A DNA stretch of 32,000 nt from Edaphobacter aggregans (GCF_003945235.1 NZ_RSDW01000001.1:2340001-2372000); one strand, 5' to 3'; shown: positions 4,993-32,000, counted from the first letter of the stretch. Program-made: numbers and translations. Notes: generated by a model from the letters alone, not told the origin.

Positions 4993-5227
4993 ACTTTTCA
5001 AGCAGCCACGCACCACCCTGATGTGCGACGGCTCGCAAATCTCCAAATATCACAAGCTCCTTGATGAGCACTGATACGCCCTGATCGTGATTCGCAGCAT
5101 CATGTGCTGCGAGGCTTTCTGGCTTACACGTCTCTAATCGGCCCTCGCCTCACTGGCTTTGGCTTCAGCGACAGATCAGTTCCGGTACGCACACCACACC
5201 GGTTGCAGTCTCTCAAGGGGTTTCGAA

Positions 5228-7024: not shown

Positions 7025-7026
7025 TC

Positions 7027-8817
7027 ATGCAGACTGTTCCCTTCGTCCCCGATAACGCTCCCTTCACACCCGAGCAGCGCAGCTGGCTCAACGGTCTCCT
7101 CGCCGGAATCTACTCCTCCGCGCCCGCCGTCAGTCCGGTCGCGGACCCGCCGCCTTCACTCAAGATCGCCGTTCTCTACGCCTCGCAATCCGGCACCGCC
7201 GAGGGCCTGGCCCGCAAGGTCGCCAAAGACCTCAAGGCCAAAGGCCACATCGCCTCGCTGCTCACACTCGAAGGCTACACACCCGCGTCACTCCTCGCCG
7301 AAACCTACGCCATCATCATCGCCAGCACCTACGGCGAAGGCGAAGCCCCCGACTCCGTCCGTCCCTTCTACGAACAGCTCTGCCTCGAGCACTTCCCCTG
7401 CTGCGAGAATCTCTCCTACGCCGTCCTCGCACTCGGCGACTCCACCTACGAGCACTTCTGCAAATTCGGTATCGACCTCGACAACAAGCTCGCCTCTCTC
7501 GCGGGCACGCGCATCTGCGACCGCATCGATTGCGATGTCGACCTCGACGAAAGCTTCACCCAGTGGAAGACCACGCTCTACGCCCGCATCGACGACATCG
7601 TCGCCGCACGCCCAGCACGCACCGCACCCTCATCGTCCATCATCACCGCACCTTCTTCTGTCAGCGAACCCACAGCCCCTTCCCACACCCGCGACAATCC
7701 ATTTCTAGCTCCGCTCGTCGACAAGCGCCCCCTCACCCGCGACATCTCCAGCAAACTCACCCTGCATCTCGCCTTCAACATCAGCGACTCCACCCTCCGC
7801 TACGAAGCCGGCGACGCATGCGGCGTCATCCCCCGCAACGACATTCATCTCGTAGAAGAGATCCTCCACACCCTCAACTTCAGCGGCTCCGTCCCCGTAC
7901 AGCTCCCCAAATCGGGAACCACCACCTTACTCGACGCGCTTCTCCATCACCTTCAGATCACCCGTCTCACGCGGAAGATGATCGAAGCCTACGCCACCAT
8001 CGGCCGACACACAGCCCAGTGTCAGCCGCTCTTTCACCTACTCGTACCCGAGCAGCAAGCCCACCTCGAAAAGTACACCTACGACCGCGGCCTCATCGAT
8101 CTCCTGCACGACTACCCCGGCATCCTCCACGAACCCGCCGACCTGGTCGCGATGCTACCCAGGCTCTCCCCACGTCTCTACTCCATCTCCTCCAGCCCCA
8201 GCGCCCACGCCGGACAGATCCACACCACCGTCGCCGTCGTCCGCTACCGCGCCCATAACCGCGACCGCGGAGGCGTCTGTTCCACTCTCCTCTCCGACCG
8301 CACCAACACTGGCGAATCTCTACCCGTCTACATCCAGCCCAACAAGCGCTTCCGCCTCCCGTCCGACCCCGCCGCACCCATCATCATGATCGGCCCCGGC
8401 ACCGGCATCGCTCCCTTCCGCGCCTTCCTCCACGAGCGCCGCGCCCTCAACCACACCGGCCGCAACTGGCTCTTCTTCGGCGAACGCTCCGCCGCTACCG
8501 ACTTCCTCTACCGCGACGAGCTTCAGTCCATGCACACCGACGGCCACCTCACACATCTCGACCTCGCCTTCTCCCGTGATCAGGACCGCAAAATCTACGT
8601 GCAGGACCGCATGCTCGAACAAGCCCCAACATTCTGGCAATGGCTGCAGGACGGAGCCAGCGTCTACGTCTGCGGCGACGCCTCGCGCATGGCCAAAGAC
8701 GTCGACGCCACCCTCCACACCATCGCCGAACAGCAGGGCCACCTCACCCGCGAATCCGCTACCGAGTACATACACCAGCTCAAGGAACACCACCGCTACC
8801 ACCGCGACGTCTACTAA
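7027..8817 (+). CDS. CysJ-like NADPH-dependent diflavin reductase (flavodoxin + FAD/NADPH ferredoxin-reductase domains)
   Basis: Flavodoxin domain KIAVLYASQSGTAEG, FAD motif RLYSISSSP, NADPH motifs GPGTGIAPFRAF and YVCGDASRMAKDV, C-terminal ..RDVY. AAGGAGAAGG RBS, with only 2 nt after the nirA stop. Confidence 0.85.
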   Translation: MQTVPFVPDNAPFTPEQRSWLNGLLAGIYSSAPAVSPVADPPPSLKIAVLYASQSGTAEGLARKVAKDLKAKGHIASLLTLEGYTPASLLAETYAIIIASTYGEGEAPDSVRPFYEQLCLEHFPCCENLSYAVLALGDSTYEHFCKFGIDLDNKLASLAGTRICDRIDCDVDLDESFTQWKTTLYARIDDIVAARPARTAPSSSIITAPSSVSEPTAPSHTRDNPFLAPLVDKRPLTRDISSKLTLHLAFNISDSTLRYEAGDACGVIPRNDIHLVEEILHTLNFSGSVPVQLPKSGTTTLLDALLHHLQITRLTRKMIEAYATIGRHTAQCQPLFHLLVPEQQAHLEKYTYDRGLIDLLHDYPGILHEPADLVAMLPRLSPRLYSISSSPSAHAGQIHTTVAVVRYRAHNRDRGGVCSTLLSDRTNTGESLPVYIQPNKRFRLPSDPAAPIIMIGPGTGIAPFRAFLHERRALNHTGRNWLFFGERSAATDFLYRDELQSMHTDGHLTHLDLAFSRDQDRKIYVQDRMLEQAPTFWQWLQDGASVYVCGDASRMAKDVDATLHTIAEQQGHLTRESATEYIHQLKEHHRYHRDVY

Positions 8818-8856
8818 ACCTTCTTCTCAAAGCCAGCGACCTAAGGAACTGAAGCT

Positions 8857-10461
8857 ATGACGCTCCCGCTCCACGAACTCGCATACTCCGAATCAGCGAA
8901 CCCCATCGTTCGCCTGACGGAAAACGGCCTCGAGATCTTTCCTGCAGGCCCACCGCAACCCGAGGTCATCACCTCTCTCATCCCCTCACGCCCCCTCCAA
9001 CCCGGCGAGCAGTACCGCTTCCACTTCAACATGACGAAGTGCATCGGCTGCCGTTCCTGCGAAGTCGCCTGCAACGAGCAGAACGGCAACCCTGCCGATC
9101 TCCGCTGGCGCCGCATCGGCGAAATCGAAGGCGGCACCTGGCCCACCACCGTGCGTCATTACCTTTCCATGGGCTGCAACCACTGCCTCAGCGCCGACTG
9201 CGCACGCGGCTGCCCCGTCGATGCCTACACAAAAGATCCCGTTACCGGCATCGTCCTCCACTCCGCCGAAGCCTGCATCGGCTGCCAGTACTGTGTCTGG
9301 AACTGCCCCTACTCCGTCCCGCAGTTCAACCCTGAGCGCGGCGTCGTCGGCAAATGCGACATGTGCCACGGCCGTCTCACCTCCGGCCTCGAGCCCGCCT
9401 GCGTCAACGCCTGTCCCGAGAACGCCATTGAAATCGAAATCGTCGATCAGCTTGAGTGGCGCAGCGATTACGCCGCCGCCAACGCTCCCGGCATGCCCTC
9501 CGCCGGACACACCATCTCCACCACACGCATCACGCTCCCTGAAAACTCAGTCGCCACCCTCGAGCGCGTCGACATCGAAACCCTCCAGCCGGAGCATCCG
9601 CACTGGTCCCTCGTTTGGATGACCTCACTCATCCAACTCTCCGCCGGAACCCTCGTCGCCGCCTTGCTCTCGCGACACTCCGGCCCCATCGCTCTCACAC
9701 TCATCCTCGCCCTCACGGCCTTCACGCTCAACATCTCCGTCCTTCACCTCGGCCGTCCCGCCTACGCCTGGCGCGCGCTCAAAATGTGGCGGCGCTCCTG
9801 GCTCTCCCGCGAAGTCCTCCTCTTCGGACTCTTCTTCTCCACGCTCACCCTCTTCACCGCTGCCGCATGGCTCGCGGCTATACACGTACTACCCTTCGCT
9901 GCGATCCTCCTGCCAGCCCTCCAACTCCTTACACCTGTCCTCGGTCTCGCAGGCATCTTCGCCAGCGCACGTCTCTATCTCGTTCCCGCCCGTCCCGCGT
10001 GGAACACACCTCACACGCCTATCGATTTCTTCCTCAGCTCCGCCGTTCTAGGCTGCTCTGCGATGCCGCTGCTCATCCGCGCCGCTGGCATGTTGCATGC
10101 ACTTCCGCAGCTTCAGTCAATCGCTCTGCCACGCTGGGTGCCGAACTTCCCGCTCTGGCCGCTGATCATCACATCCGCTCTCTGGATGCTCAACCACATC
10201 GTCCGCACCATCCGCCTCCATCACTCCGTAAGCTACGAGCGACGAGCCTCCGCATCGCTCCTCAACACCTACAACCTCCGCGGAACCTTCCTCGTCTCCT
10301 TCGCCTTTGTCGGCCTCGCCATTCTTCTCTCCGTCGCAGGCCAACCTCTCTTCGCACTACCCGCCGCACTCGCCGGAGTCATCTCCGCCCGCTATCTCTT
10401 CTTCGTCTCTGTCGTGCCGCTCAACATGGCCCTCACCTTCGTAAGAACGGCCCACGCATGA
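8857..10461 (+). CDS. Fusion protein: DmsB/NrfC-type four-cluster ferredoxin domain + DmsC-like 8-helix membrane anchor
   Basis: Four Cys groups: CIGCRSCEVAC, CNHCLSADCARGCP, CIGCQYCVWNCP, CDMCHGR..ACVNACP. About 8 hydrophobic helices follow from residue ~250. No twin-arginine signal. The stop overlaps the next start (ATGA at 10458-10461). Confidence 0.75.
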   Translation: MTLPLHELAYSESANPIVRLTENGLEIFPAGPPQPEVITSLIPSRPLQPGEQYRFHFNMTKCIGCRSCEVACNEQNGNPADLRWRRIGEIEGGTWPTTVRHYLSMGCNHCLSADCARGCPVDAYTKDPVTGIVLHSAEACIGCQYCVWNCPYSVPQFNPERGVVGKCDMCHGRLTSGLEPACVNACPENAIEIEIVDQLEWRSDYAAANAPGMPSAGHTISTTRITLPENSVATLERVDIETLQPEHPHWSLVWMTSLIQLSAGTLVAALLSRHSGPIALTLILALTAFTLNISVLHLGRPAYAWRALKMWRRSWLSREVLLFGLFFSTLTLFTAAAWLAAIHVLPFAAILLPALQLLTPVLGLAGIFASARLYLVPARPAWNTPHTPIDFFLSSAVLGCSAMPLLIRAAGMLHALPQLQSIALPRWVPNFPLWPLIITSALWMLNHIVRTIRLHHSVSYERRASASLLNTYNLRGTFLVSFAFVGLAILLSVAGQPLFALPAALAGVISARYLFFVSVVPLNMALTFVRTAHA

Positions 10462-12680
10462 GCAACTCTATCTTCACGCGCATCAAGCGACTCACAGGCA
10501 TCGACACACGCCGCGAAAAATACGCCTACGCCAAAGACCCCGTCTTCGGTCACATCTCCAAATCGCGCGTCGCCGAGAAATGGGTCAAGACCACCTGCGG
10601 CTACTGTTCCGTCGGTTGCGGCATGCTCGTCGGCGTGCGCGAAAACAAAGCCGTCGCCGTACGCGGCAACCCCGACCATCCCGTCAATCGCGGCAAGCTC
10701 TGCCCCAAAGGTCTCTCCGAACATCACATCCTCGACTCACCCGGCCGCGCAAAACAACCGCTCCTGCGCAAGAACGGCGTCCTCACTCCTGTCTCGTGGG
10801 ACGAAGCACTCGACACGATGGTCGCCCGCTTCCGCGACATTCAGCAGCGTCACGGCAACGAGTCCCTCGGCGTCGTCGGCACCGGCCAACTCCTCACCGA
10901 AGAGTGCTACACCCTCGGCAAGCTCGTTCAACTCGGCTTCCGCACCCGCAACAACGACGGCAACACCACCCTCTGCATGGCCTCTGCCGTCTCCGGCTAC
11001 AAACTCTCCTTTGGCTCCGACGGCCCGCCCGGCTCCTACGCCGACATGGAGACCGCCGACCTCATCCTCCTCATCGGCGCCAACATCGCCGACAACCATC
11101 CCATCCTCTGCCACCGCGTCGATCGCACCTCGCCCGGAACAAAACCCCGCACCCTCATCGTTGTCGACCCACGCGTCACCAAGACCGCCATGATGGCCGA
11201 CATCCATCTGCCCGTCAAACCCCGCAGCGACATCGCTCTCCTCAACGGCATCGCTCACATCCTCATCCGCGAAGGCCTCATCGATCGCGACTACATCGCC
11301 CGCCACACCACCGGCTTCGAACAATTCGCAAACTTCGTCGCCGCCTTTACTCCCGCACACGTAGCCGCCATCACCGGCCTCACCGAAGAGACCATCATCA
11401 ACACGGCATGGCTCTACGGCAAAGCAAAATCCGCCTTCATCGGCTGGACCATGGGCGTCAATCACTCCACGCAAGGCGCTGTCACCGTCGCCGCCATCAA
11501 CAACCTCGCCCTCATCACCGGCAACATCGGACGCTCCGGCGCAGCGCCCTTCTCCATCACCGGCCAATGCAACGCCATGGGCACGCGCGAAACCGGCTTT
11601 ACCTCATCGCTCCCCGGCTACCGCAAATTTGATAATCCGCAGGACCGCGAAGACCTCGCGCGCATCTGGAACATCCCCGTCGAACGCATTCCGTCCGCGC
11701 GAGGCCTCGCCTACCCCGACATCATCGAAGCCGCCGTACAAGGCCGCATCAAAGCCCTCTGGTTCGTCGCCACCAATCCCGCCGTCTCCTTCCCCAACGC
11801 GAAGCTCCTCGACCACGCCCTCCGCAGCGTCGAGTTCCTCGTCGTACAGGACGGCTTCCACCCCACGCCCACCAGCGACTACGCCCATCTCGTCCTCCCC
11901 GCCGCCATCTGGGGCGAAAAGCAAGGAACCTACACCAACTCCGAACGCCGCGTCTCCAAGGTCAACCCCGCCGTCATCCCTCCCCGCGAAGCACGCCCCG
12001 ACTTCGACATCTTTCTCGACATCGCACAACGCCTCGGAGTACGCAATGAGCTTTACCCCGGCTGGACATCGACACACGACGCCTTCCTGGAATGGCAGCG
12101 CGTCTCCGCCGGCCGCATGTGTGACTACTCGAAATTCACCTGGCAGCAGATCGAAGATGCCAACGGCCTCCAATGGGGCGGCACCTCGCTCTACACCGAC
12201 GGCATCTTCCCCACCGAAGACGGACGCGCCCGTCTCCACAGCGTTCCCTGCGATCCCTTCACCGAGCAGCCCGACTCCAACTTCGACTTCATCCTCAACA
12301 CAGGCCGCACCGTCGAACACTGGCACACCCGCACCAAGACCGCCGAGGTCGGAATTCTCAACGACATGGTCCCCAACGCATGGCTCGAGATGAATCCCAC
12401 CGACGCCGACCGCCTCGAGCTCAAACCTCACGACCGCGTCACCGTCCGCAGCCGTCGCGGTGCCGTCGCCGACATCGAGCTCCGCATCACCGGCATCGTC
12501 GCTCCCGGTCAGGTCTTCATGCCCTTCCACTTCTCCGAGACCAACTCCAACATCGTCACCCTCGGAGCCTTCGATCCCATCTCCCGCGAACCCAACTTCA
12601 AACAGTGCGCCGTCCGCATCGAGCGGACCCCCATCCGCGACCGTCGAAACGCCTCGCCCCCTCGAACTCAGCGACAGTAG
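10458..12680 (+). CDS. nasA: Molybdopterin oxidoreductase, assimilatory nitrate reductase catalytic subunit (Nas/NarB type)
   Basis: N-terminal 4Fe-4S motif CGYCSVGCG..C(PKG), the Nap/Nas-type Mo-ligand region TTLCMASAV, and MGD-binding segments. No Tat signal. The true start is ATG 10458; the track ORF from 9615 is an out-of-context upstream extension. Confidence 0.85.
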   Translation: MSNSIFTRIKRLTGIDTRREKYAYAKDPVFGHISKSRVAEKWVKTTCGYCSVGCGMLVGVRENKAVAVRGNPDHPVNRGKLCPKGLSEHHILDSPGRAKQPLLRKNGVLTPVSWDEALDTMVARFRDIQQRHGNESLGVVGTGQLLTEECYTLGKLVQLGFRTRNNDGNTTLCMASAVSGYKLSFGSDGPPGSYADMETADLILLIGANIADNHPILCHRVDRTSPGTKPRTLIVVDPRVTKTAMMADIHLPVKPRSDIALLNGIAHILIREGLIDRDYIARHTTGFEQFANFVAAFTPAHVAAITGLTEETIINTAWLYGKAKSAFIGWTMGVNHSTQGAVTVAAINNLALITGNIGRSGAAPFSITGQCNAMGTRETGFTSSLPGYRKFDNPQDREDLARIWNIPVERIPSARGLAYPDIIEAAVQGRIKALWFVATNPAVSFPNAKLLDHALRSVEFLVVQDGFHPTPTSDYAHLVLPAAIWGEKQGTYTNSERRVSKVNPAVIPPREARPDFDIFLDIAQRLGVRNELYPGWTSTHDAFLEWQRVSAGRMCDYSKFTWQQIEDANGLQWGGTSLYTDGIFPTEDGRARLHSVPCDPFTEQPDSNFDFILNTGRTVEHWHTRTKTAEVGILNDMVPNAWLEMNPTDADRLELKPHDRVTVRSRRGAVADIELRITGIVAPGQVFMPFHFSETNSNIVTLGAFDPISREPNFKQCAVRIERTPIRDRRNASPPRTQRQ

Positions 12681-12749
12681 CAAACCACGATTGCCACCCG
12701 TTGCACCACTTGTTGACCACCAAAATCCACACGGAGAACACCAAAAATC

Positions 12750-14027
12750 ATGGCCAACTTCAAGACCTTCCTCAAGTCCGGGCACCCTCCCACCCTCCTA
12801 AGTGCCTTTCTTTACTTCGACTTCTCCTTCGCCGTGTGGGTGCTCAACGGAGCCATGGGCCCCTTCATCTCCGAACAGTTCCACCTGACCCCCGCCCAAA
12901 TCGGCTTAATGGTTTCGATTCCTACACTTGCGGGGGCTTTGATGCGTTTTCCTCTCGGCGTCCTCTCCCAATACATAGGCCGGAAGAACGCCGCCATCGT
13001 AGAAATGTCCGCCATCGTTATCTCACTGATATACGGATACTTATTCGTCAAAACCTTCCACGAAGTCCTGGCCATGGGCGTCCTTCTAGGCATCGCCGGA
13101 GCCAGCTTCGGCGTAGCTCTCTCCCTCGGCTCCGGCTGGTTTCCCCAACAATACAAAGGACTTGCGATGGGCATAGCCGGTGCAGGCAACAGCGGCACCG
13201 CCCTGGCCGCGCTCCTGGCCCCGCGCTTGGCCCAACACTACGGATGGCATCAAGTCTATGGATTCGCAGCACTTACCATGCTGCTCCCCCTCGCCGTCAT
13301 GATCATCTTCGCCAAAGAACCACCAGACGCCCACCACCAAACCCTGAAAGAACACCTCTCCTGCCTCTGGGAAAAAGACGGCTGGGCCTTTAACTCCATA
13401 TATATCATCACTTTCGGAGGCTTCCTCGGCCTCGCTACCTTCCTCCCATCCTTCTTCTACTCCCAATTCCATGTCACAAAAATTCAAGCCGGTTCCCTCA
13501 CCGTCCTAGCCACGCTAACTGGCTCATTAACAAGAGTTTTTGGTGGATGGCTAGCCGACCGAATAGGCGGAATTACCACGCTCTCGATCGTCTTTCTCGC
13601 CGCCACAGCCACTTTTTTAGGCCTAATATTTACCCCATCCCTCGCCACCACAACCATCCTTTTTATGCTCTGCTTCGCAGCCCTTGGAGCCGGTAACGGT
13701 GCCACTTTTCAACTAGTTCCGCTACGTTGGCCCTATTCCACCGCCGTCGCAGGCAGCATGATCGGCGAAATCGGAGCCCTGGGTGGCGGCATCCTTCCAA
13801 ACCTGCTGGGACAAACCAAACAGCACACCGGCTCATATGCCATTGGTTTTATCGTCTACGCCACACTAGCGCTCTCCGTCCTGGCCATGCTGCGCACCAT
13901 CTCAAAAAAATGGACACACACATGGGTGGAGGCCGGCGGACGCGCTGTGGTTCTAGTGCCAGAGACACCCGATCCAGCAGAAATAGGGTTTTCGAATCCG
14001 TCACTAGAAACACCTCTTGAAGTTTAA
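12750..14027 (+). CDS. narK: MFS nitrate/nitrite transporter (NNP/NarK family)
   Basis: 12-helix MFS with NNP-like segments (LLSAFLYFDFSFAVWVLNG, GAGNSGTA, GAGNGATFQLVP). Last gene of the nas operon. Confidence 0.8.
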   Translation: MANFKTFLKSGHPPTLLSAFLYFDFSFAVWVLNGAMGPFISEQFHLTPAQIGLMVSIPTLAGALMRFPLGVLSQYIGRKNAAIVEMSAIVISLIYGYLFVKTFHEVLAMGVLLGIAGASFGVALSLGSGWFPQQYKGLAMGIAGAGNSGTALAALLAPRLAQHYGWHQVYGFAALTMLLPLAVMIIFAKEPPDAHHQTLKEHLSCLWEKDGWAFNSIYIITFGGFLGLATFLPSFFYSQFHVTKIQAGSLTVLATLTGSLTRVFGGWLADRIGGITTLSIVFLAATATFLGLIFTPSLATTTILFMLCFAALGAGNGATFQLVPLRWPYSTAVAGSMIGEIGALGGGILPNLLGQTKQHTGSYAIGFIVYATLALSVLAMLRTISKKWTHTWVEAGGRAVVLVPETPDPAEIGFSNPSLETPLEV

Positions 14028-14306: not shown

Positions 14307-17300
14307 GTGGGAGTCGTTCGTCGAGTTGTTTGCCTACTGTTTGACCTGTTTAGCTGCCGTTTTTCCCCCCGAGTTTCGAGCTCTCCCTTCCATCTTGCAG
14401 CCCTTGCACTTACGTTTTGCGCGTGCTCGCCCGCAATGCGTGCGCAGCAGGCACAGATGCAGGTCATGAGGCATCACGTGCGCCCGGAGGTGACGGACCA
14501 TCGCGCCTCCTTTGTGGGGCGACTCCCTGACGACAAGCAGATGCACCTATCCGTGGTGCTGCCTTTGCGCAATCAGGCCGCGCTTACCAGTCTGCTGCAG
14601 AGGCTCTATGATCCATCAAGCCCGGACTATCGACACTTCCTCACGGTAGCGCAGTTCACCGAACAGTTTGGTCCAACGGAACAAGACTATTCAGCGGTGG
14701 CTGCGTATTTGCAGTCACAAGGTCTGACAGTTAAACCCGCACCAGCGAATCGCCTGGTTGTTCCGGTGAGCGGCTCGATGGCCCAGGTCAATTCTGCCTT
14801 CAACGTGCAGATGAACACCTACCAGCACCCCACCGAGAACCGGACGTTCTTCTCTCCGGACCGCGAGCCCTCGTTGCCGCTGAATCTACAGGTAAGACAC
14901 GTCACAGGTTTGGATAACTTCTCGCTGCCGCATCGCTTTACGCAGCGTCCGAATACCAGCCAACAAGCTGCTGCAGTGAACGGTTCAGGTCCAGTCAATT
15001 CGTATCTTGGCAGCGATATGCGCGCGGCTTATTACGGCGGCACGACGTTGGATGGCACAGGGCAAGCAATTGGTCTGCTTGAATTCGGCGGTTATGACAT
15101 GACCGATGTCACACTGACGTTCAGCAATGCCGGACAGACGACCAACGTCCCGATCAACAATATACTGCTCGATGGTGCCACGGGTGGTCCGGAAGGATCC
15201 TACGGCGGCGAGCAGGTTTTGGATATCGTGCAGGCTATCGGAATGGCACCGGGGCTGAGCCAGGTGCGTGTTTACATCGGAGTCGGTGAGGACGATGCGA
15301 TAATTCTCAACTCCATGGCTTCAGAGAACATTGCCAAACAGTTGAGTTGCTCGTGGGGGTGGCTACCTGTTGATCCTACGACCGACGATGTTTTTTTTCA
15401 GGAGATGGCCGCTCAGGGCCAGAGCTTCTTTGCGGCCTCTGGTGACGCCGGAGCCTACGACCAGTCAATCAATCCCTTCTTTTATCCGGCCGAAGATCAG
15501 TACGTGACAGCAGTCGGCGGTACACACCTGACAACGAGCGGACCGGGCGGTACATGGGTCTCCGAGACTGTATGGGACTCGGAGGGTGATGGCAGTGGTG
15601 GAGGTATCAGTCCCGATGGCATTACTCTGCCTAGCTATCAGAGCGGCCTTGCGAATTCAGCCAATGGCGGTTCGAACACGCTCCGTAACGTGCCAGACGT
15701 CGCCATGGAAGGCGATTTTGACAACTACGCCTGTCAGGCACATCGGTGTACCGGCGACTGGGCAGGTACGAGCTTTGCCGCACCCCGCTGGGCCGGCTTC
15801 ATGGCGCTGGTGAATCAGCAAGCGGTCGAAGCTGGGACCGCACCTTCGGGAGGCCTCGGATTTCTGAATCCGGCGCTATACCAACTGGCTCAGGGAGCAA
15901 ACGCGAGCAACGACCTGCACGACATCGTCTCCGGAAACAACCGAACCCAGAACCAGCCGGTCTGGTTCAGTGCCATCGCCGGCTATGACCTGACAACGGG
16001 TTGGGGTAGTGCCAACGGGCAGAGCCTGATTAATGATCTCGCCGGCGCGCAGGTGCCGGGTTTCTGGCTTTCCAGTTCGCAGAGTGAAGTCGACGTGAAT
16101 CCGGGAGGAACCGGTACGACGACAATCAAAATTACCGATGCCGGAGGTTTCACGGACGCTGTGAATCTTGCTGTGACCTCGACGCTGCCAAGCGGAGTGA
16201 CAGCATCGTTTGCTACCAATCCGTCGACAGCTTCCAACGTGTTGACGTTCTCGGTAGACAACTTAGTCGCGCAGCAGAATATTCCCATTACGGTGACGGG
16301 TACTGCGCAATCGTTGACCCAAACCGCAACCTTGCTGCTTTCTATTCACACACCGGCCTTTGCCCTGGTGCCTTCATCAAACGGCTTGACTCTCAATCCC
16401 GGGCAGACCGTAAGCACAACAATCACCGTGTTGCCGGAGTATGGCTTTACGGGCAGCGTGAATCTCGCAATCGTCGGGTTGCCAAGTGGCGTGACCGCTT
16501 CGTTCTCGCCTACATCAACGACCGGAACCAACACGCTGACCCTGACTGCCAGCACCTCAGCAGCGGCAAACACCAACACGCTGACTATTACGGGAACGTC
16601 GGGCAGCTTGTCCGCAACGACAAAGCTAGGTCTGTCAGTTACCGGGCCGAAGTTCCTGCTGCTTGCGGGCTCGCCTGTATCGGTGGGACAGGGCAGCACG
16701 GTGTCAACCTATATCGATGTTTTACAGGAAAATGGCTTCTCAGGCGGCGTAAACCTTACGGCAACAAATCTGCCCTCCGGTGTCACTGCAACATTTTCAA
16801 CCAATCCAACGACTAGCACGTCCAGCGTCAGCTTTACGGCCAGCAACACAGCGTCTGTAGGGCAGAGCACGGTGACGATTACAGGAACATCGGGATCATT
16901 GAGCGCTACAGCCTCGATCACGCTGAATGTAATGGCGCCGTCGTTCACTTTGAACACGGCCGGCACCGTGATTTTCGGACAAGGCAGTTCTACCTCGACC
17001 TACGTCTATGTGTCGGGGCAATACGGCTTCAATGGGAACGTCGCGATGTCGGTCTCCGGCCTGCCGAGCGGCGTAACGGCGATCTGGGGGCCGAATCCCA
17101 CGAACTACAGCACCGAGCTTTACTTGTATGCAAGTAATTCCTCAACGCCGGGACAGTATCCGCTTACGATTACCGGCACCTCGGGTTCGCTGACAGAAAC
17201 CACTCCACTGACATTAACTATTGCTGCCCCAACTTTCACGATACCGTCGCTCGGTACGCTTACGATGGGAACTGGTTCAACGAACTATGCATATGTAAAC

Positions 17301-20300
17301 ATTCAGCGTTTGTACGGCTTTACCGGCAATGTTGCGTTGTCAGTGTCCGGGCTGCCTGGCGGGGTGACGGCATCGTTCAATCCCAACCCGATGGCTAGCG
17401 CAAACTTCAGCTCTTATATGTCACTGCAGGCGAGTGCTGCCACTGTGCCTGGGCAATATACGGTGACGCTAACAGGTACCTCGGGCAGCCAAACAGTCAC
17501 GACTTCGTTGACCCTGGTCATCGCGTCGCCAGGCTTTTCGTTGTCTACCAGCGGCCTGACCGTCGGGCAAGGATTGAGCGCGGGAACGTACGTCTACGTC
17601 AATCAACTCTACGGATTCAATAACGCCGTGAACCTCTCTGTTTCCGGATTGCCAAGTGGTGTAACGGCATCGTTCAACACGAATCCGACGACCTCATACT
17701 CCAACCTGCTCACATTCAACGTAGGCGCCACGGTACCCACCGGGCAATATCCAATAACCGTTACTGGCACTTCAGGCTCAATGGTGCAGACGACCACACT
17801 GACACTCACCGTAGGGGTACCGTCGTTCACACTTTCGACCTATGGAATAACGGTTGGACAGGGGCAGACTTCATCTGCCTGGGTCTATATGAACGGGGTG
17901 AACGGCTTCAACAGTGCCGTGAACCTGTCTGTCTCCGGGCTACCAAGTGGCGTAACTGCATCGTTCAACACGAATCCAACGACCTCGTACTCCAACATGC
18001 TCACGTTCAACGTCGGCGCCACGGTTCCTACGGGACAGTATCCAATCACCATCACTGGCACTTCAGGCTCTAACACCCAGACCACCACGCTAACCCTGAC
18101 CGTAGGGGTGCCTTCGTTCACGATCTACGCAGCCACTTACCCGACGATCGGCCAGGGATCGACCGGCTCAGGCTACGTCTATGCTCAAGCGCTGAATGGC
18201 TTCAGCGGTAGTGTCAACTTTTCGATTTCGGGCCTACCGAGCGGTGTGACGGCTACCTTTTCCCCTAACCCTACGACATATAGCAGCTCTATCTTATTTA
18301 CGGTTGCGAGCACGGCCGCAATCGGATCGAGCACCCTCACCATTACTGGCACCTCCGGCTCCGAGACGGAAACCACCACGATGACGCTGACGGTAGCTGC
18401 ACCCACTTTTTCGATCTATGGGCCTTACAGTGTGAGCCTTAACCAGGGAGGCAGTGCGACCTCCTACGCAACAGTGAACCCGCAGTACGGCTTCACAGGC
18501 AACGTAACCCTAAGCACCTCAGGCTTGCCCAGCGGAGTGACCGCCACGTTCTCGCCGAATCCGACGAGCGGCTCGAGCACGATGACACTTTCTGCATCGA
18601 GCACAGCCACACCGGGAACAGCGACGTTCACCATTGCCGGTACTTCGGGCAGCACCGCGACTGCTGTACAGGCTCAGGTGACGGTGAACGCGAGCAATTT
18701 CTCGCTCTCGGCGGCGCCGGGTAAGGTGTTTGCAATGCCTGGAGCTTCGGGCAAATCGACGATCAGTATCGTACCGATCAACGGCTTTGCGAACAGCGTG
18801 AATCTTTCGGTGAGCGGTTTGCCCGCCGGTGTCACAGCGACGTTTTCGCCCGCAACAGCAACGACAAGCAGCACGCTTACCCTAATGGCTAGCAGCACGG
18901 CGGCTGCCGGAAGCTCGCCCCTAACCATTACTGGAAACTCTGAAACAGAAACCGCTTCGACGCCATTGCTGCTGAATATCGAAAACACTAACGCAACGGT
19001 TACTTCAACAACGCTGGCTCTCACTGCCGGAAATACTGTGATCTCAACTGTGGCGCAAGGTGCATCTGTGACCGCAACATCCAGCGTGAGCGCAGGCTCG
19101 AATCCGGTGACAGCAGGCCAGGTATATCTCTGCGATGCAAGTGCGACATACTGCGATTTTGCGCACAAGATCGCGATGACGCAGTTGAACAACAGCGGCA
19201 ATGCCGTCTTCCGATTCGTGCCGGGTATCGGGCAGCACACCTATAAGGCTGTATTCGCTGGAACTACTGCAAACCTTACAAGTACCTCTACGTCGGTTCC
19301 GCTGGCGGTAACAGGATCACTTCCGACAACCACGACCCTCGCGCAAAGCGGGACGACTGGCAACTATACGCTGACCGCTACGGTTACAGGACAGGGAGCA
19401 GTCGCTCCGTCCGGCAATATTTCGTTCATCGATACCACCTCCAACAGCGCCGTGGCAAACGCTGCTGCGACCGTCAACGGCGCAACCATTACGGAGAGCA
19501 TTGCGCAGACCATTCCAACCAGCTCTTATCCGGCCCAAATTGTTTCCGACGATTTCAATGGAGATGGTATTCCAGACCTCGCGGTGACAACCGTAGGCTC
19601 ATCTACTGTGTCCATTTCGCTCGGTAACAGTAGTGGCAGGTTCTCAGCGATCACGACTCTTCAGCTTGGTGCGCCATCCGGTTCAATCGCATTAGGTGAT
19701 TTCAATCGAGACGGAAATGTCGACCTGGCTGTAGTCATTCCCTCGAGTGAGACGATCGCTATCTTCTTCGGCAATGGCGATGGTACGTTCACGGCTTCGA
19801 CGGCAACCGTGTATACCCCACCTCAACCTGGCGGTATCGTCGTAGCTGATCTCAACGGCGATGGCTTGCAGGATTTAGCCGTGCTCAGCACAAATAGCTC
19901 CAGTGTCACGGTCCTGCTAGGTCACGGGGACGGCAGCTTTACGCCGGCAACTTTAAGTCCTTCTACAGGTGCTTCTCCCTTTTCCGTCGTGGCGGGAGAT
20001 TTTAACGGCGATAGCGTGGCAGATCTTGCCATTACCAACTATTCCTACAGCGGATCCACGGGAACAGTGACGATTCTACTCGGCAATGGGGATGGCAGCT
20101 TCACCGCAGCCCCGACTCTTTCAACCACAACTTTGCCATACTCGATCGTTCTGGGTGACTTCAACAATGATGGAAGACAAGATTTAGCAGTTGGGGCAAA
20201 CGGTGGGACCGCCGTAAACGTGTTCCTCGGCAATGGCGATGGAACGTTCACGGCCGCACCCAACGCGCTGACGACCAGTTATGCAATGTCACTCGCTGTT

Positions 20301-22217
20301 GCAGATGTGAACGGCGACGGCAAGCTGGATCTGATCGTTGCGGACGCTAACACCTATAAGCTCACCACATTGCTCGGCAATGGAGACGGCACCTTCACGA
20401 CAGGCGCGACTATGACAGCTTCTGCACAACCTGAATCCGTCATAGTAGGTGATTGGAATGGCGACGGGGTGCCCGATCTCGCTTTCGCGAACTACTACGG
20501 CAGTTCGGTCACGACTGTCACGACGCAACGCACCCAAAAGGTCACGGCAGCGGTGAATGGTATTGCGTCGAGCGGCCCTGGACAGCAGTCGATTGCAGCA
20601 ACATATCCAGGTGACAACAGCTATACGGGCAGCACATCGAGTGCCGTGACACTGACGGGCGACAAAGTTACTCCCAACGTAACATTGACGCTTTCACCTT
20701 CCACGATCTCCTCGACGACGCCGGTTACGGTCTCGGTGCAGGTAACAGACCCGCTGAACGGCGGTTTGCCTTCCGGCACGATCACGTTGACAAGCGGCAG
20801 CTATGCTTCGGCTCCCGTGGCTCTCTCTTCAGGCCGTGGCACTATCACCATTCCTTCCGGCAAGCTGGCCGAGGGGACCGACATGCTCACGATCCATTAC
20901 ACGCCAGATACAGCCAGCGCATCGCTGTACACCGTAGCGACAGGCACGATCAGCGTATCCGTAAACCAGACCACACCGGCAATCACGTGGTTGATGCCAG
21001 TTCCGATCACCTATGGCATAGCACTAAGCGGTATGCAATTGAATGCGGCGGCATCGACGAGCGGAACGTTCAGCTACACTCCTGCGACAGGTACGGTACT
21101 GTCGGCGGGACAGCACCAGCTTTCGGTGACATTTACACCAACGGATACGACGAACTATCGAAGCGTCACCAGCACTGTGTCGCTGAATGTAAATCAGGCA
21201 CCGCTGAGTATCAGTGCGAACAATGTATCGCGCATATACGGTGCGGCGAACCCGCCGCTCTCGGGCACACTGAGCGGCGCGGTGAACGGAGACACCTTCA
21301 CCGAAACATTTTCAACATCCGCCACGGTTTCGAACTCGGCAGGCACATATGCGATTGTGCCGTCCGTGACCGGAGCCAGCCTGGCAGATTATTCTGTGGC
21401 AACCACCAACGGTACATTGACGATCTCACCGGCACCCACAACGACGACATTCAACCTCTCGAATCAGAACCTTGTTCTCACCGCAGCGGTCGCCTCGACA
21501 AGCAATGGCACTCCGACCGGATCGGTGATGTTTTATGCGGGACAAACACAGCTGGGTTCCGCGACGCTGAGCGGCGGCATTGCGACCTTCACGTTGACGT
21601 CATTTCCGAGTGGCGACGTTTCGCTCAGCGCACAATACTCTGGTGACGGCAACTTCGCGGCGTCAACTTCGGCATCCACACCGGTGCTTACGTTTAGGGC
21701 CGTCAATACCTCGCTGATAGTTGCTGCTTCAAGCTCAGTGACGGATAACTTCAGCATCACGGTGCCTTCAGGCTATACGGGAACCCTACAGTTCTCCTGC
21801 ACAGGACTGCCGCAGAATACGAATTGCAGCTTCCAACCAGCCTCGCTGTCGTTCTCCAGCACCACCAATACCGCGAGCACCATGTTGACGCTCACGACTG
21901 GCGGTCAGGCGCGCATAAATTCGATCCCCTTAACGAATACGGACGCATATGCCGTGCGATGGGCCGCGTTGTTCGCGCTGCCCGGACTGCTTCCGTTGCT
22001 GGTCAAACGGCGGCGGTTGAGTGCGCGGCTTCGCAATCTATCGCTAATGCTGCTACTCTCGAGCGCGGGTCTGTGGTTTACGGGTTGTGCAGGTGGCGGA
22101 GGCAGCAGCAACTCTTCCAAGCCGGTCACTCCGTCGGGCAATTACACCATCCAGGTAGTTGCGTCCGGTCCATCGGGCGTAAGCCAGTCGGCTGCTATCA
22201 CCGTAACTGTGCAGTGA
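14307..22217 (+). CDS. Giant secreted/surface multidomain protein: pro-kumamolisin activation domain + S53 sedolisin peptidase + 10 Ig-like repeats + Big-like domains + 7 FG-GAP blades + MBG-like domains + split terminal repeat with TM hairpin
   Basis: Activation domain LYDPSSPDYRHFLTVAQFTEQFGP. S53 motifs GGEQVLDIV, SGDAGA, GTSFAAP (Ser codon 15771-15773), DIVSGNN..GYDLTTGWGS. The only in-frame starts before the signal-like FHLAALALTFCACSPAMRA are GTG 14307 and ATG 14436. Only 14307 keeps the signal peptide, so it is chosen, but the start remains uncertain. Confidence 0.8.
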   Translation: MGVVRRVVCLLFDLFSCRFSPRVSSSPFHLAALALTFCACSPAMRAQQAQMQVMRHHVRPEVTDHRASFVGRLPDDKQMHLSVVLPLRNQAALTSLLQRLYDPSSPDYRHFLTVAQFTEQFGPTEQDYSAVAAYLQSQGLTVKPAPANRLVVPVSGSMAQVNSAFNVQMNTYQHPTENRTFFSPDREPSLPLNLQVRHVTGLDNFSLPHRFTQRPNTSQQAAAVNGSGPVNSYLGSDMRAAYYGGTTLDGTGQAIGLLEFGGYDMTDVTLTFSNAGQTTNVPINNILLDGATGGPEGSYGGEQVLDIVQAIGMAPGLSQVRVYIGVGEDDAIILNSMASENIAKQLSCSWGWLPVDPTTDDVFFQEMAAQGQSFFAASGDAGAYDQSINPFFYPAEDQYVTAVGGTHLTTSGPGGTWVSETVWDSEGDGSGGGISPDGITLPSYQSGLANSANGGSNTLRNVPDVAMEGDFDNYACQAHRCTGDWAGTSFAAPRWAGFMALVNQQAVEAGTAPSGGLGFLNPALYQLAQGANASNDLHDIVSGNNRTQNQPVWFSAIAGYDLTTGWGSANGQSLINDLAGAQVPGFWLSSSQSEVDVNPGGTGTTTIKITDAGGFTDAVNLAVTSTLPSGVTASFATNPSTASNVLTFSVDNLVAQQNIPITVTGTAQSLTQTATLLLSIHTPAFALVPSSNGLTLNPGQTVSTTITVLPEYGFTGSVNLAIVGLPSGVTASFSPTSTTGTNTLTLTASTSAAANTNTLTITGTSGSLSATTKLGLSVTGPKFLLLAGSPVSVGQGSTVSTYIDVLQENGFSGGVNLTATNLPSGVTATFSTNPTTSTSSVSFTASNTASVGQSTVTITGTSGSLSATASITLNVMAPSFTLNTAGTVIFGQGSSTSTYVYVSGQYGFNGNVAMSVSGLPSGVTAIWGPNPTNYSTELYLYASNSSTPGQYPLTITGTSGSLTETTPLTLTIAAPTFTIPSLGTLTMGTGSTNYAYVNIQRLYGFTGNVALSVSGLPGGVTASFNPNPMASANFSSYMSLQASAATVPGQYTVTLTGTSGSQTVTTSLTLVIASPGFSLSTSGLTVGQGLSAGTYVYVNQLYGFNNAVNLSVSGLPSGVTASFNTNPTTSYSNLLTFNVGATVPTGQYPITVTGTSGSMVQTTTLTLTVGVPSFTLSTYGITVGQGQTSSAWVYMNGVNGFNSAVNLSVSGLPSGVTASFNTNPTTSYSNMLTFNVGATVPTGQYPITITGTSGSNTQTTTLTLTVGVPSFTIYAATYPTIGQGSTGSGYVYAQALNGFSGSVNFSISGLPSGVTATFSPNPTTYSSSILFTVASTAAIGSSTLTITGTSGSETETTTMTLTVAAPTFSIYGPYSVSLNQGGSATSYATVNPQYGFTGNVTLSTSGLPSGVTATFSPNPTSGSSTMTLSASSTATPGTATFTIAGTSGSTATAVQAQVTVNASNFSLSAAPGKVFAMPGASGKSTISIVPINGFANSVNLSVSGLPAGVTATFSPATATTSSTLTLMASSTAAAGSSPLTITGNSETETASTPLLLNIENTNATVTSTTLALTAGNTVISTVAQGASVTATSSVSAGSNPVTAGQVYLCDASATYCDFAHKIAMTQLNNSGNAVFRFVPGIGQHTYKAVFAGTTANLTSTSTSVPLAVTGSLPTTTTLAQSGTTGNYTLTATVTGQGAVAPSGNISFIDTTSNSAVANAAATVNGATITESIAQTIPTSSYPAQIVSDDFNGDGIPDLAVTTVGSSTVSISLGNSSGRFSAITTLQLGAPSGSIALGDFNRDGNVDLAVVIPSSETIAIFFGNGDGTFTASTATVYTPPQPGGIVVADLNGDGLQDLAVLSTNSSSVTVLLGHGDGSFTPATLSPSTGASPFSVVAGDFNGDSVADLAITNYSYSGSTGTVTILLGNGDGSFTAAPTLSTTTLPYSIVLGDFNNDGRQDLAVGANGGTAVNVFLGNGDGTFTAAPNALTTSYAMSLAVADVNGDGKLDLIVADANTYKLTTLLGNGDGTFTTGATMTASAQPESVIVGDWNGDGVPDLAFANYYGSSVTTVTTQRTQKVTAAVNGIASSGPGQQSIAATYPGDNSYTGSTSSAVTLTGDKVTPNVTLTLSPSTISSTTPVTVSVQVTDPLNGGLPSGTITLTSGSYASAPVALSSGRGTITIPSGKLAEGTDMLTIHYTPDTASASLYTVATGTISVSVNQTTPAITWLMPVPITYGIALSGMQLNAAASTSGTFSYTPATGTVLSAGQHQLSVTFTPTDTTNYRSVTSTVSLNVNQAPLSISANNVSRIYGAANPPLSGTLSGAVNGDTFTETFSTSATVSNSAGTYAIVPSVTGASLADYSVATTNGTLTISPAPTTTTFNLSNQNLVLTAAVASTSNGTPTGSVMFYAGQTQLGSATLSGGIATFTLTSFPSGDVSLSAQYSGDGNFAASTSASTPVLTFRAVNTSLIVAASSSVTDNFSITVPSGYTGTLQFSCTGLPQNTNCSFQPASLSFSSTTNTASTMLTLTTGGQARINSIPLTNTDAYAVRWAALFALPGLLPLLVKRRRLSARLRNLSLMLLLSSAGLWFTGCAGGGGSSNSSKPVTPSGNYTIQVVASGPSGVSQSAAITVTVQ
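16054..18989 (+). repeat. Ten in-frame tandem repeats (~291-297 nt, ~97-99 aa) of an Ig-like domain with core ..GF.G.VNLSVSGLPSGVTA.F.PNP...TLT.TGTSGS...T.LTLTV
   Basis: The GLPSGVTA cores recur near 16474, 16766, 17059, 17349, 17646, 17937, 18231, 18522 and 18816, with a first degenerate copy near 16190. Repeats 6 and 7 are nearly identical in protein sequence. Confidence 0.85.
19536..20525 (+). repeat. Seven FG-GAP/VCBS-type repeats (predicted 7-bladed beta-propeller) inside the giant gene
   Basis: Seven copies of D.NGDG..DLAV ... (L/F)LGNGDG(T/S)FT read from the translation. Confidence 0.8.
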
Positions 22218-22263
22218 CTTGGAAAACTCGTCTGCCAGGGTCGACCAATACTCTCTCTTCGGT

Positions 22264-23229
22264 TTAAAGATAGCTCACGCTCGTGAGGTCTTCGCATATC
22301 TGCCACAGTCTGTTGGCATCGGACTCATTACGGGCCTGTACGGCGACCTCGGAAGGGCGCACTTCGTCACCGCGCATCTCTTTGAAGCCTTGTGGACCAT
22401 AGTAGCCTCCGCTGGTGGCTTCCGAAGCGGTGGCTGCGTAGAGAGTGGGCAGAGCGCCCTCGGCGTCGGTGTTGAGGACGATGCCGATGGCATGGCCGAA
22501 GATGGAGCGGACAGCCTTCTCGATGGAGGAGTGGTGGTCTCCGCCTTTGAAGAGGTTTGTGTGAGCTACTCCTGGATGCGCGGCGATGCTCATGATGCGT
22601 GAGGATGCGCGGCGAAGACGGCGATCCAGCTCGAAGGCGAACATGAGGTCGGCTAGCTTGGACTGAGCGTAGCTCTTCATCGGCGAGTAGTTCTTCGTCG
22701 ATTGCAGGTCATTGAACTTCAGCTCGCCTCGCTTGTGCGCTATGGACGCAATGGTGACGATGCGTGGAGGCTCGGAGGATTCCTTCGCGGCCATTTCGAG
22801 CGCGGGCATCAACAAGCCGGTGAGAGCGAAGTGGGCGAGAACGTTGGTGCCGAACTGCAGCTCGAAGCCGTCGACAGTTTCGAGGCGTTGCGGCGGGGCC
22901 ATGACGCCAGCGTTGTTGATGAGGATGTGTAACGGACGGTGCCGAGCAAGCTCGCGAGCCGCGAATTCGCGCACGTCTTTGAGGCTCGCGAGGTCGAGCA
23001 GGACCAGCTCCGTATGGGCGCTGGGAGCTTCGGTCTGCAACCGATCGAGAGCCTCTTCGCCCCTCTGGCGGTTGCGGCAGGCGAGCATAATACTGGCTCC
23101 CTTCCGCGCCAACTTGAGGGCGGCGTGGTAGCCGATGCCGCTGTTGGCTCCGGTGATCAGGACGCGCTTACCGGCCTGCGAGGGCATCTCGGCTGCTGTC
23201 CAGGTCTTGCTTGTGACTGATTCGCTCAT
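22264..23229 (-). CDS. Short-chain dehydrogenase/reductase (classical SDR, retinol-dehydrogenase-like)
   Basis: Cofactor motif VLITGANSGIGYH, NNAG, and the catalytic Y..SK (YAQSKLA). ATG 23229 (MSESV..) is preferred over the longer track ORF start at 23328. Confidence 0.8.
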   Translation of the reverse strand: MSESVTSKTWTAAEMPSQAGKRVLITGANSGIGYHAALKLARKGASIMLACRNRQRGEEALDRLQTEAPSAHTELVLLDLASLKDVREFAARELARHRPLHILINNAGVMAPPQRLETVDGFELQFGTNVLAHFALTGLLMPALEMAAKESSEPPRIVTIASIAHKRGELKFNDLQSTKNYSPMKSYAQSKLADLMFAFELDRRLRRASSRIMSIAAHPGVAHTNLFKGGDHHSSIEKAVRSIFGHAIGIVLNTDAEGALPTLYAATASEATSGGYYGPQGFKEMRGDEVRPSEVAVQARNESDANRLWQICEDLTSVSYL

Positions 23230-31226: not shown

Positions 31227-32000
31227 CTATTCCACAATCAGCGTTACGGTAGTGTTGTGAACCAAGTTGCCGCTGGTTGCGGTGATGGTAATAACATAGG
31301 ACTGCTGCGTCTGGTTGAAGTAGCCGCCGGTTCCACAGCCAGCGATTGCTCCAAACGATATCAGCGCCAGCAGCAGCCACAAAAGCGCGCCAGGTCGTCC
31401 GCGTGCTCTTCTCAGTAGCGCGAAGGGTACTAGCAGCGTCGCAAATACCAGTGGCGTGCGAGAGCTCCGGTCGAGTGTGGCATTCTGTTTTGGAACGTTG
31501 ACGGTCATGGTCGATTGGACGCCGTCAGCTCCCGGTATTACAGGATTAGGACTGAAGGTGTAGCTTGCTCCCGCGGGTAGTCCCGACGCGCTCAGCGTTA
31601 CCGGACTGTTGTATGGAAGATTCAGATCAGGGATCTTGATTGCAAAGTTAGCAGCCCCCCCAGGCGGGACCGTCTGCGGCGGCGTGGGGCTTATGACGCC
31701 GAAGTCCGGCGCGAGGATAGTCACACTGACCAACGCGAACGGCGTTATTGTTGTGAAGTTTGTATCACCGCTATATGAAGCCGTGAGCGTGCGTTCTCCA
31801 ATAGGTAGCGTGGTGGTAATCAGCGTCGCCGTGCCATTGACGATCGCCACGGTGCCGAACGCCGTGCCGCCGTCGTAGAAGGTAATGGTCCCGGTTGCGC
31901 CTGCATTGACCATTGCCGTCAGCGTTACCGGATTACCCTGCACAGTTTGGCTTGGTGACGCAGTCAAAGTGACGAAAGTGCTCGCCTTGGTGATCGTCAG
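31227..32000 (-). CDS. 3' end of a large Ig-like-repeat surface protein (5' end outside the window) with C-terminal split-repeat/TM-hairpin/lipobox module
   Basis: The frame stays open to the window edge (..LTITKASTFVTLTASPSQTVQGNPVTLTA.., Big_3-like repeats). The C-terminus parallels that of the giant protein. Confidence 0.75.
   Translation of the reverse strand: MTITKASTFVTLTASPSQTVQGNPVTLTAMVNAGATGTITFYDGGTAFGTVAIVNGTATLITTTLPIGERTLTASYSGDTNFTTITPFALVSVTILAPDFGVISPTPPQTVPPGGAANFAIKIPDLNLPYNSPVTLSASGLPAGASYTFSPNPVIPGADGVQSTMTVNVPKQNATLDRSSRTPLVFATLLVPFALLRRARGRPGALLWLLLALISFGAIAGCGTGGYFNQTQQSYVITITATSGNLVHNTTVTLIVE

Follow-up and report, generated by a model that had tools for sequence, protein, structure and literature searches.

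How a giant, putatively secreted protein could come to end in what reads like the signal of a small lipoprotein is the question raised by a 32,000-nucleotide stretch of Edaphobacter aggregans DNA (GCF_003945235.1, NZ_RSDW01000001.1:2340001-2372000), here called the window. The protein is encoded on the plus strand by a 2636-aa open reading frame (ORF) at 14307-22217, closed by a TGA at 22215-22217; its start was set at a GTG codon, the true start being uncertain. A preliminary description of this DNA had proposed that the last immunoglobulin (Ig)-like domain of the protein is interrupted by a transmembrane (TM) helix, an Arg cluster and a lipoprotein-type signal with a lipobox Cys, and that the strands behind the Cys, held by a lipid, supply the end of the domain. 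Every element named there was found in the sequence where it had been placed (Table 1). We find that this tail belongs to a curated family of putative C-terminal anchors, the lipo-invert tails, and that it may hold its carrier through a lipopeptide which completes the split domain.

Membership of family NF058595 and conservation of the tail

The end of the giant protein matched the NCBIfam model NF058595.1, named 'invert_tail' and described as 'lipo-invert putative C-terminal anchoring domain-containing protein', over profile positions 2-113 of 113 (aa 2524-2636). By itself the tail scored 57.7 bits, and the full-length protein 70.9 bits, where the curated cutoff is 37. The match covers strand E of the last Ig-like domain, the linker behind it, the first TM helix (TM1), the basic cluster, the lipoprotein-like signal with its Cys and the final strands, and it runs to the last residue of the protein. 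The order TM helix, basic cluster, hydrophobic segment and lipobox Cys, which we took for this family from its name and its sequences, is present in the giant protein. As this is a full-length match to an existing curated model, the tail type has to be counted as already known in the form of database curation, where it bears the label 'putative'. The preliminary description, which knew of no sorting signal of this type, is to be corrected on this point; its structural reading is essentially that of the curated family. Full-text literature searches yielded no paper on the lipo-invert tail, nor on its lipidation, its cleavage by LspA or its strand complementation. When the last 205 aa were compared with NCBIfam at E<=1, the only match besides NF058595 was a chance one to fusolisin, and no PEP-CTERM, LPXTG, GlyGly-CTERM or MYXO-CTERM model was reached even at this threshold, in agreement with the earlier view that the tail is not of the PEP-CTERM, LPXTG or GlyGly-CTERM type.

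A word-indexed in-frame search for homologues returned 23 relatives, and in the 19 that were aligned (alignment A1) the lipobox Cys and two Cys residues ahead of the insert were invariant. When 1.84 billion representatives were searched exhaustively with phmmer, 2868 proteins matched at E<=1e-3, among them 205 at E<=1e-10; the element order and tail statistics that follow were taken from the best 150 of these 2868 matches. The same order of TM1, basic cluster, h-region and [GAS]-C stood at the C-terminal end in 147 of the 150, the three exceptions being ordinary Ig repeats, and a cluster of at least three K/R was present in 142. The arrangement that the preliminary description had read from a single protein recurs in other genomes, and a hidden Markov model (HMM) of it could be built; with the curated match, this recurrence and a further such tail in the window (see below), it lies well outside anything that chance would produce. 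The match reached the protein's last residue in nearly all of the 147 tails, and the proteins hosting the tail were between ~160 and 3108 aa long. With the giant protein added to the 147 family representatives (148 tails), the lipobox Cys is 100% conserved and lies 35-65 aa (median 43) from the C-terminus. The distance from the beginning of the basic cluster to the Cys is 20-34 residues (median 27), as in a lipoprotein signal at an N-terminus.

The alignment columns of the 147 tails showed, from the N- to the C-terminal side, a Pro ~11 residues before TM1 (78%), a TM1 consensus of L-A-A-x-L-W-L-P(65%)-G(78%)-L-L, a basic cluster R-R-R-R with 78/48/71/52% Arg and Lys next commonest, a poly-Leu h-region, L/M/V/A/I/F at position -3, mostly T/S/A at -2, G, A or S in all tails at -1 (57%, 33% and 9%), the Cys itself (100%), Gly at +2, +3 and +4 (76%, 76% and 63%) and final strands of the form T91-P88-x-G97-T-Y-T-V-Q-V...L-T-L-T-V-Q, after which the protein ends. 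In the giant protein the Pro of the linker (..SIPL.., 21924-21926) occupies the column of the upstream Pro, the P-G at 21981-21986 forms the family-conserved helix-breaking kink of TM1, and TM1 is the most hydrophobic 15-mer of the whole protein on the Kyte-Doolittle scale.

Common to the tail and the canonical lipoprotein signal (Lgt/LspA/Lnt) are a basic n-region, a Leu-rich h-region, a lipobox of the form [LMVIFA]-[TSA]-[GAS]-C, a Gly/Ser-rich mature start and the Arg-Cys spacing; in the giant protein the first three read KRRRLSARLRN, LSLMLLLSSAGLWF and F-T-G-C. A Gly/Ser-rich stretch is typical of the mature N-terminus of lipoproteins. That an n-region, h-region and lipobox follow TM1 and the Arg loop inside a loop of the last Ig-like domain, as had been proposed, is supported by their conservation throughout the family, although their role as a signal is predicted from sequence. 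A substrate of signal peptidase II (SPase II) has its Cys within ~15-35 residues of the N-terminus, whereas the Cys of the giant protein is residue 2594 of 2636, in a signal that lies ~2590 residues from the N-terminus and behind a TM helix. Moreover, the 'mature lipoprotein' of the tail would be only ~43 aa long (43 aa from Cys2594 to the C-terminus of the giant protein), and the functional cargo would be on the signal-peptide side of the cut.

Furthermore, when the HMM built from the 147 tails was applied to the ORFs of all six frames, in the window and in 24 related genomic loci, a second tail was found in the window (E 4.9e-12), at the end of a gene on the minus strand that is truncated by the window end (Table 1). 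It reads ...TPLVFATLLVPFALL-RRARGR-PGALLWLLLALISFGAI-AGC-GTGGYFNQTQ-QSYVITITATSGNLVHNTTVTLIVE. The gene is unrelated to the giant gene and its tail belongs to another subfamily, with a 36-aa post-Cys fragment, no Cys pair ahead of the insert and Big_3_5 upstream. Both window tails are the same object as NF058595, matched at full length and above the cutoff, with no structural difference.

Completion of the terminal Ig-like domain across the insert

In the giant protein ~73 residues are inserted between strands A-E and strands F-G of the terminal Ig-like domain, whose ten unsplit paralogues form the internal repeats of the same protein. A profile comparison, a natural homologue without the insert and two structure models agree in showing that the post-insert strands F-G complete this domain. 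With the insert removed, the family profile aligned by hhalign with the intact repeat 7 from end to end (columns 4-101 vs 9-94, probability 92.9%, E 3.6e-7), VTPSGNYTIQV... of the tail being paired with VPTGQYPITI... of the repeat, which bears out the alignment with repeat 7 that had been noted earlier. Positions 79-110 of the tail HMM, which lie behind the Cys, independently matched the last strands (F-G) of internal repeats at aa 943-973, 1142-1169 and 1238-1266. An unsplit counterpart was found in P0192, a homologue from the subfamily of the second window tail, which has no insert and contains two intact domains reading ...TMTVSTSSSTPLGNYQLTITATSGNLVHTASVTLTV; when the second tail was spliced and compared with both domains of P0192 by BLASTP, the alignments crossed the splice junction at 43% identity, with E 2e-15 and 7e-14.

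Similar results were obtained with two AlphaFold models, for which homologue alignments were used. Each consists of six or five strands, a helical hairpin and two strands, and the latter are placed in the sandwich, as the preliminary description had supposed and in accordance with P0192; the post-insert strands were modelled with a confidence (pLDDT) of ~80 for the giant protein and of 90-96 for the second tail. Foldseek alignments with Ig-like or fibronectin type III (Fn3)-like domains extended over the entire query, the insert appearing as a gap, and the targets included subtilase C-terminal domains, a sialidase linker domain, SbsC, MSP/PapD-like folds and single domains of 89-106 aa. For the first model the TMq rose up to 0.49, against a maximum of 0.39 for the 66 pre-insert residues alone.

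The pre-insert half also carries a pair of Cys residues, C2498 (21798-21800) and C2507 (21825-21827), in the context ..FSCTGLPQNTNCSF.., and these are the two that are invariant in this tail subfamily (alignment A1). Where the pair would stand, the sequence of the ten internal repeats is ..LSVSGLPSGVTASF..; the second window tail is also without the pair. A C2498-C2507 disulfide may stabilise the split domain and mark it as extracytoplasmic.

The single-domain character of the two halves also bears on the idea that two genes are involved, either because a TM-anchored giant was fused to a small lipoprotein gene by an error of sequencing or annotation, or because translation begins inside the gene, for instance at the TTG in RRR-L-SA, and yields a separate lipoprotein, a possibility raised in the preliminary description. 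From the Arg cluster onward the tail does read alone as a complete small lipoprotein precursor, and in-frame TTG and ATG codons are present in the region. However, the two halves make one domain, and no break in the frame occurs in the window, in 147 of the 150 best representatives or, at the DNA level, in 23 tails. Among these 23 there was no conserved in-frame start, a Shine-Dalgarno-like motif stood upstream in two only, and one tail (L024) had no candidate start at all. On the strength of this DNA comparison the internal start with a separate lipoprotein gene was rejected, and we regard a two-gene or artefactual origin of the tail as highly improbable.

A proposed lipopeptide mechanism and its alternatives

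We consider it somewhat probable that the tail, a lipo-invert anchor of family NF058595 on a secreted sedolisin/Ig-repeat/FG-GAP giant of an Acidobacteriaceae bacterium, works by strand complementation from a lipopeptide. In this mechanism the N-terminal signal would send the ~2550-aa body through Sec until transfer is stopped by TM1, which would act as a stop-transfer helix with its N-terminus out and its C-terminus in. The Arg cluster would be kept in the cytoplasm, as expected for the basic loop by the positive-inside rule, and would at the same time serve as n-region of the internal signal. The chain being turned round, the second hydrophobic segment would enter the membrane N-in, C-out as the h-region of an internal type II signal; in no other orientation can a lipobox be read by the housekeeping lipoprotein enzymes. 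Lgt would put diacylglycerol on Cys2594, LspA would cut between Gly2593 and Cys2594, and the resulting 43-residue lipopeptide would complete the last Ig-like domain with strands F and G, so that the body would be held to the lipid anchor by beta-strand complementation with no dedicated sortase. If the tail is cleaved in this way, an Ig-like fold would be finished by the strands of another polypeptide, as in the donor-strand complementation of chaperone-usher pili and in engineered split Ig/Fn3 domains, and PapD-like and pilus-subunit folds were among the Foldseek matches of the tail models. This is an analogy only, for a single precursor would give rise to both pieces and their separation would follow its insertion into the membrane, with no homology, chaperone or usher.

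The need for an extra helix can be understood from work on MYXO-CTERM proteins, in which a C-terminal TM anchor was described as having an inverted topology with respect to a lipoprotein signal peptide and hence as no normal substrate of Lgt/LspA, for which reason a dedicated myxosortase is used (PMC11980579). The lipo-invert tail looks like a solution to this problem of inverted topology, with TM1 and the Arg loop turning the chain. The two systems are alike in being C-terminal modules on Sec-exported surface proteins, with a TM helix, an Arg cluster, an invariant Cys for which lipidation, possibly through Lgt, is predicted, and a lipid anchor at the C-terminal end (PMC11980579). They differ in order, which is Cys-TM-Arg in MYXO-CTERM and TM-Arg-TM-Cys in the lipo-invert tail, and in outcome, since MYXO-CTERM has a dedicated CPBP protease and keeps the lipid on the cargo chain, while the canonical lipobox of the tail would leave it on a separate peptide.

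Several points weigh against the lipopeptide mechanism. We know of no precedent for the processing by Lgt/LspA of an internal signal ~2590 residues from the N-terminus, and our literature searches yielded neither a precedent for internal SPase II cleavage nor an experiment on the tail; the NCBIfam name itself says 'putative'. After cleavage by LspA the hairpin of TM1 and the second helix would still hold the body, and the lipid would therefore add little unless a further cut frees the body. In the 148 tails no other Cys follows the lipobox Cys; as this is the sole Cys of the tail, no covalent link could keep body and lipopeptide together. The PS51257-type lipobox core [LVI][ASTVI][GAS]C matched the giant protein's tail and 129 of the 148 tails, but also 114 of 812 (14%) other Cys residues of the same S/T/G-rich, charge-poor proteins; the motif alone is thus weakly discriminating, and it is the combined elements and the invariant Cys that carry weight. 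With an HMM made from the window repeats only, the score of the post-insert tail was reached by 22 of 200 shuffled tails, which is no gain, and the AlphaFold models are single-chain models that carry no information on cleavage.

The main rival is an uncleaved re-entrant hairpin, that is, two membrane helices set in a loop of an Ig-like domain made by a single chain, with the Cys perhaps lipidated by Lgt without a cut by LspA or serving some other role at the interface, and with the protein standing on the inner membrane and facing the periplasm. The single chain folds in AlphaFold as a complete sandwich with a helical hairpin, such a hairpin alone suffices for anchoring, and the lack of a precedent for internal SPase II cleavage in the literature searched also speaks for it. 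On the other hand, a hairpin of this kind has no need for a 100% conserved Cys, for G/A/S at -1, for a hydrophobic residue at -3 or for the Gly/Ser tether, and the cargoes (peptidase, nuclease, adhesin-like repeats, choice-of-anchor D) are typical of surface or extracellular proteins. We think it unlikely that the tail is no more than an uncleaved hairpin.

The fuller form of the lipopeptide mechanism, which we put forward tentatively, holds that Lgt and LspA process the internal signal, that the ~43-aa lipopeptide would stay bound to a cargo of at least 200 kDa through strands F-G of the split domain, that a second cut at or before TM1 would free the complex for the outer membrane or the surface, and that thousands of acidobacterial surface proteins may use this route. 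A related proposal makes TM1 and the Arg cluster themselves a sortase-type signal, cut in addition by a dedicated or housekeeping intramembrane protease, with the rhomboid/rhombosortase, exosortase, CPBP and site-2 protease types as candidates; the body would be freed at or before TM1 and stay attached only via the lipopeptide, or else be transferred or released. This extends the lipopeptide mechanism by a second cleavage and does not replace it. TM1 followed by RRRR resembles the last two parts of tripartite C-terminal signals (PMC11980579), the P-G of TM1 and the Pro upstream are well conserved, and without a second cut the lipid would be redundant with the hairpin. Speculatively, and from sequence alone, the P-G kink and the upstream Pro may serve either hairpin packing or recognition by a second protease.

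The same resemblance of TM1 and the basic cluster to the last two parts of a signal extends to PEP-CTERM/exosortase, LPXTG/sortase, GlyGly-CTERM/rhombosortase and PGF-CTERM/archaeosortase, and all of these are, like the tail, modular and found on unrelated cargoes. In those systems, however, the basic cluster is terminal, whereas in the tail ~70 residues follow it; the tail also lacks a PEP, LPXTG, GG or PGF motif and a match to their HMMs, NF058595 being the sole NCBIfam C-terminal sorting model that it matched at E<=1. No candidate sorting enzyme or linked sortase gene was found near the giant gene among ten window ORFs scanned (1963-25959), which comprised HemD-GAF-ANTAR, a nitrite/sulfite reductase, a flavoprotein, an Fe-S/DmsC-like protein, a major facilitator superfamily (MFS) transporter, a short-chain dehydrogenase/reductase (SDR), DUF1634 and PlsX, and of which two had no family. 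We give the sortase-type extension a small probability.

If the lipopeptide mechanism is true, an ordinary lipoprotein signal stands at the wrong end of a protein, is made readable by an extra membrane helix, and has its lipid kept by a split domain. Lgt and LspA would then act on internal signals, and a lipid anchor provided in trans by strand complementation would be a new principle of bacterial protein sorting. Acidobacteria are dominant but poorly studied soil bacteria, and many of their largest surface enzymes and adhesins would be attached in a way that differs from the known systems of the sortase type. The tail could then also serve as a compact, enzyme-free tag by which recombinant proteins are anchored to lipid. 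The biology behind the database entry NF058595 is unpublished, and unusual if it holds.

Carrier protein, cargoes and genomic neighbourhood

The giant protein combines a signal-peptide-like segment, a peptidase module, Ig-like and FG-GAP repeats and the MBG_2/Big_3_5 pair ahead of the tail (Table 1). Its N-terminal hydrophobic segment suggests that the body would be exported through Sec, and a crude test for an N-terminal basic-plus-hydrophobic segment was passed by 52 of 80 full-length family representatives. The cluster names read only 'hypothetical protein', and the exact window protein was absent from the collection, possibly owing to another start call.

Table 1. Positions in the window of the parts of the giant protein and of the second lipo-invert gene
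Feature	Residues	Position	Strand	Evidence or remark
Signal-peptide-like hydrophobic segment, FHLAALALTFCACSPAMRA	28-46	14388-14444	+	Hydropathy scan; Arg residues just before
Pro-kumamolisin/sedolisin (S53) peptidase module	50-578	14454-16040	+	PDB 1t1e pro-kumamolisin, E 4.9e-46; Pfam Pro-kuma_activ, aa 67-205
Ten tandem unsplit Ig-like repeats, ~94 aa each	591-1558	16077-18980	+	Repeat HMM, 10 domains, 95-130 bits each
FG-GAP/VCBS repeat region, approximate boundaries	1775-2143	19629-20735	+	Pfam FG-GAP_3, E 7.5e-60
MBG_2 and Big_3_5	2300-2372 and 2376-2458	21204-21680	+	Pfam/NCBIfam; cassette ahead of the tail in many family members
Terminal Ig-like domain, pre-insert half (NTSLIV...TLTTG), strands A-E	2467-2532	21705-21902	+	Repeat HMM i-Evalue 7e-6, HMM positions 7-78; AlphaFold pLDDT 86-92
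Linker, poorly conserved, GQARINSIPLTNTDAYAVR		21903-21959	+	AlphaFold pLDDT < 50
TM1, WAALFALPGLLPLLV	2552-2566	21960-22004	+	Kyte-Doolittle mean 2.05; AlphaFold helix, model residues 79-100
Basic loop, KRRRLSARLRN		22005-22037	+	Family columns Arg-rich
Second hydrophobic helix, LSLMLLLSSAGLWF		22038-22079	+	AlphaFold helix, model residues 107-126; poly-Leu family consensus
Lipobox, F-T-G-C	Cys 2594	22077-22088	+	Cys codon 22086-22088
Gly/Ser-rich tether, AGGGGSSNSSK		22089-22121	+	Family positions +2 to +4 Gly-rich
Post-insert strands F-G, PVTPSGNYTIQVVASGPSGVSQSAAITVTVQ, C-terminal end	2606-2636	22122-22214	+	hhalign, tail HMM, AlphaFold, Foldseek
Second lipo-invert gene, truncated by window end		31230-32000	-	NF058595 48.2 bits, cutoff 37; stop 31227-31229
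Second tail, TM1		31413-31457	-	
Second tail, RRARGR		31395-31412	-	
Second tail, h-region		31344-31394	-	
Second tail, A-G-C		31335-31343	-	
Second tail, strands F-G		31230-31304	-	

The cargoes on which the tail was found comprise NHL and ScyE-like propellers, FG-GAP, beta-helix and Kelch proteins, an ExeM/NucH nuclease and 'choice-of-anchor D' proteins; given this variety, the lipo-invert tail behaves as a modular C-terminal unit on extracytoplasmic proteins. A cassette of MBG_2, Big_3_5 and tail recurs at 21204-22214 of the window, in P0029, P0032, P0037, P0038, P0042, P0047 and P0052, and at locus L001, and is often preceded by an ASH/CFAP65-like Ig domain. This recurrence suggests that the anchor is exchanged together with its stalk and not alone.

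The related loci all come from Acidobacteriaceae or other Terriglobia, with KBS 89, Granulicella sp. S156, G. mallensis X5P3, Bryocella elongata DSM 22489 and Edaphobacter among them, a picture biased towards close relatives because the genome scan was pattern-limited and based on a narrower alignment (A2). Three loci carry tandem lipo-invert paralogues, namely L002 (2806-6534 and 6806-10555), L009 (2-2872 and 2824-6552) and L012 (1-1851 and 2140-6456), the pair of L002 being NHL/ScyE-like proteins with a choice-of-anchor D domain. In six candidate N-terminal lipoproteins of the related loci the lipobox stands in the context ..L-A-G-C-G-G/Y.., like the internal lipoboxes. A conserved lipoprotein of ~546 aa from the Phosphoesterase family (PF04185), with an N-terminal lipobox ..AGCGY.. 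in this same context, was also noticed at L013 (6812-8449), L004 (from 7851), L006 (from 6763) and L023 (from 7519). In L006 and L013 it directly follows the matched gene, and in L004 it comes ~1.3 kb downstream; in L023 it is in the same region, the matched gene there being only a partial relative.

For annotation, the lipo-invert tail accounts for proteins that end in an apparent fused small lipoprotein, and it is a caution that such genes should not be divided, nor spurious ORFs that overlap them be called. The GC-rich tails give rise to long spurious ORFs of this kind, which get annotated. One in an alternative frame lies over the giant protein's tail at 21824-22267 (plus strand), and the 103-aa P0001, a gene call from a public metagenome, is a wrong-frame translation over a homologous tail.

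Upstream of the giant gene the window holds a nitrite-assimilation cluster (1963-3693 on the minus strand, and 5159-14027), one of whose proteins is unusual in joining uroporphyrinogen-III synthase (HemD) to GAF and ANTAR domains.

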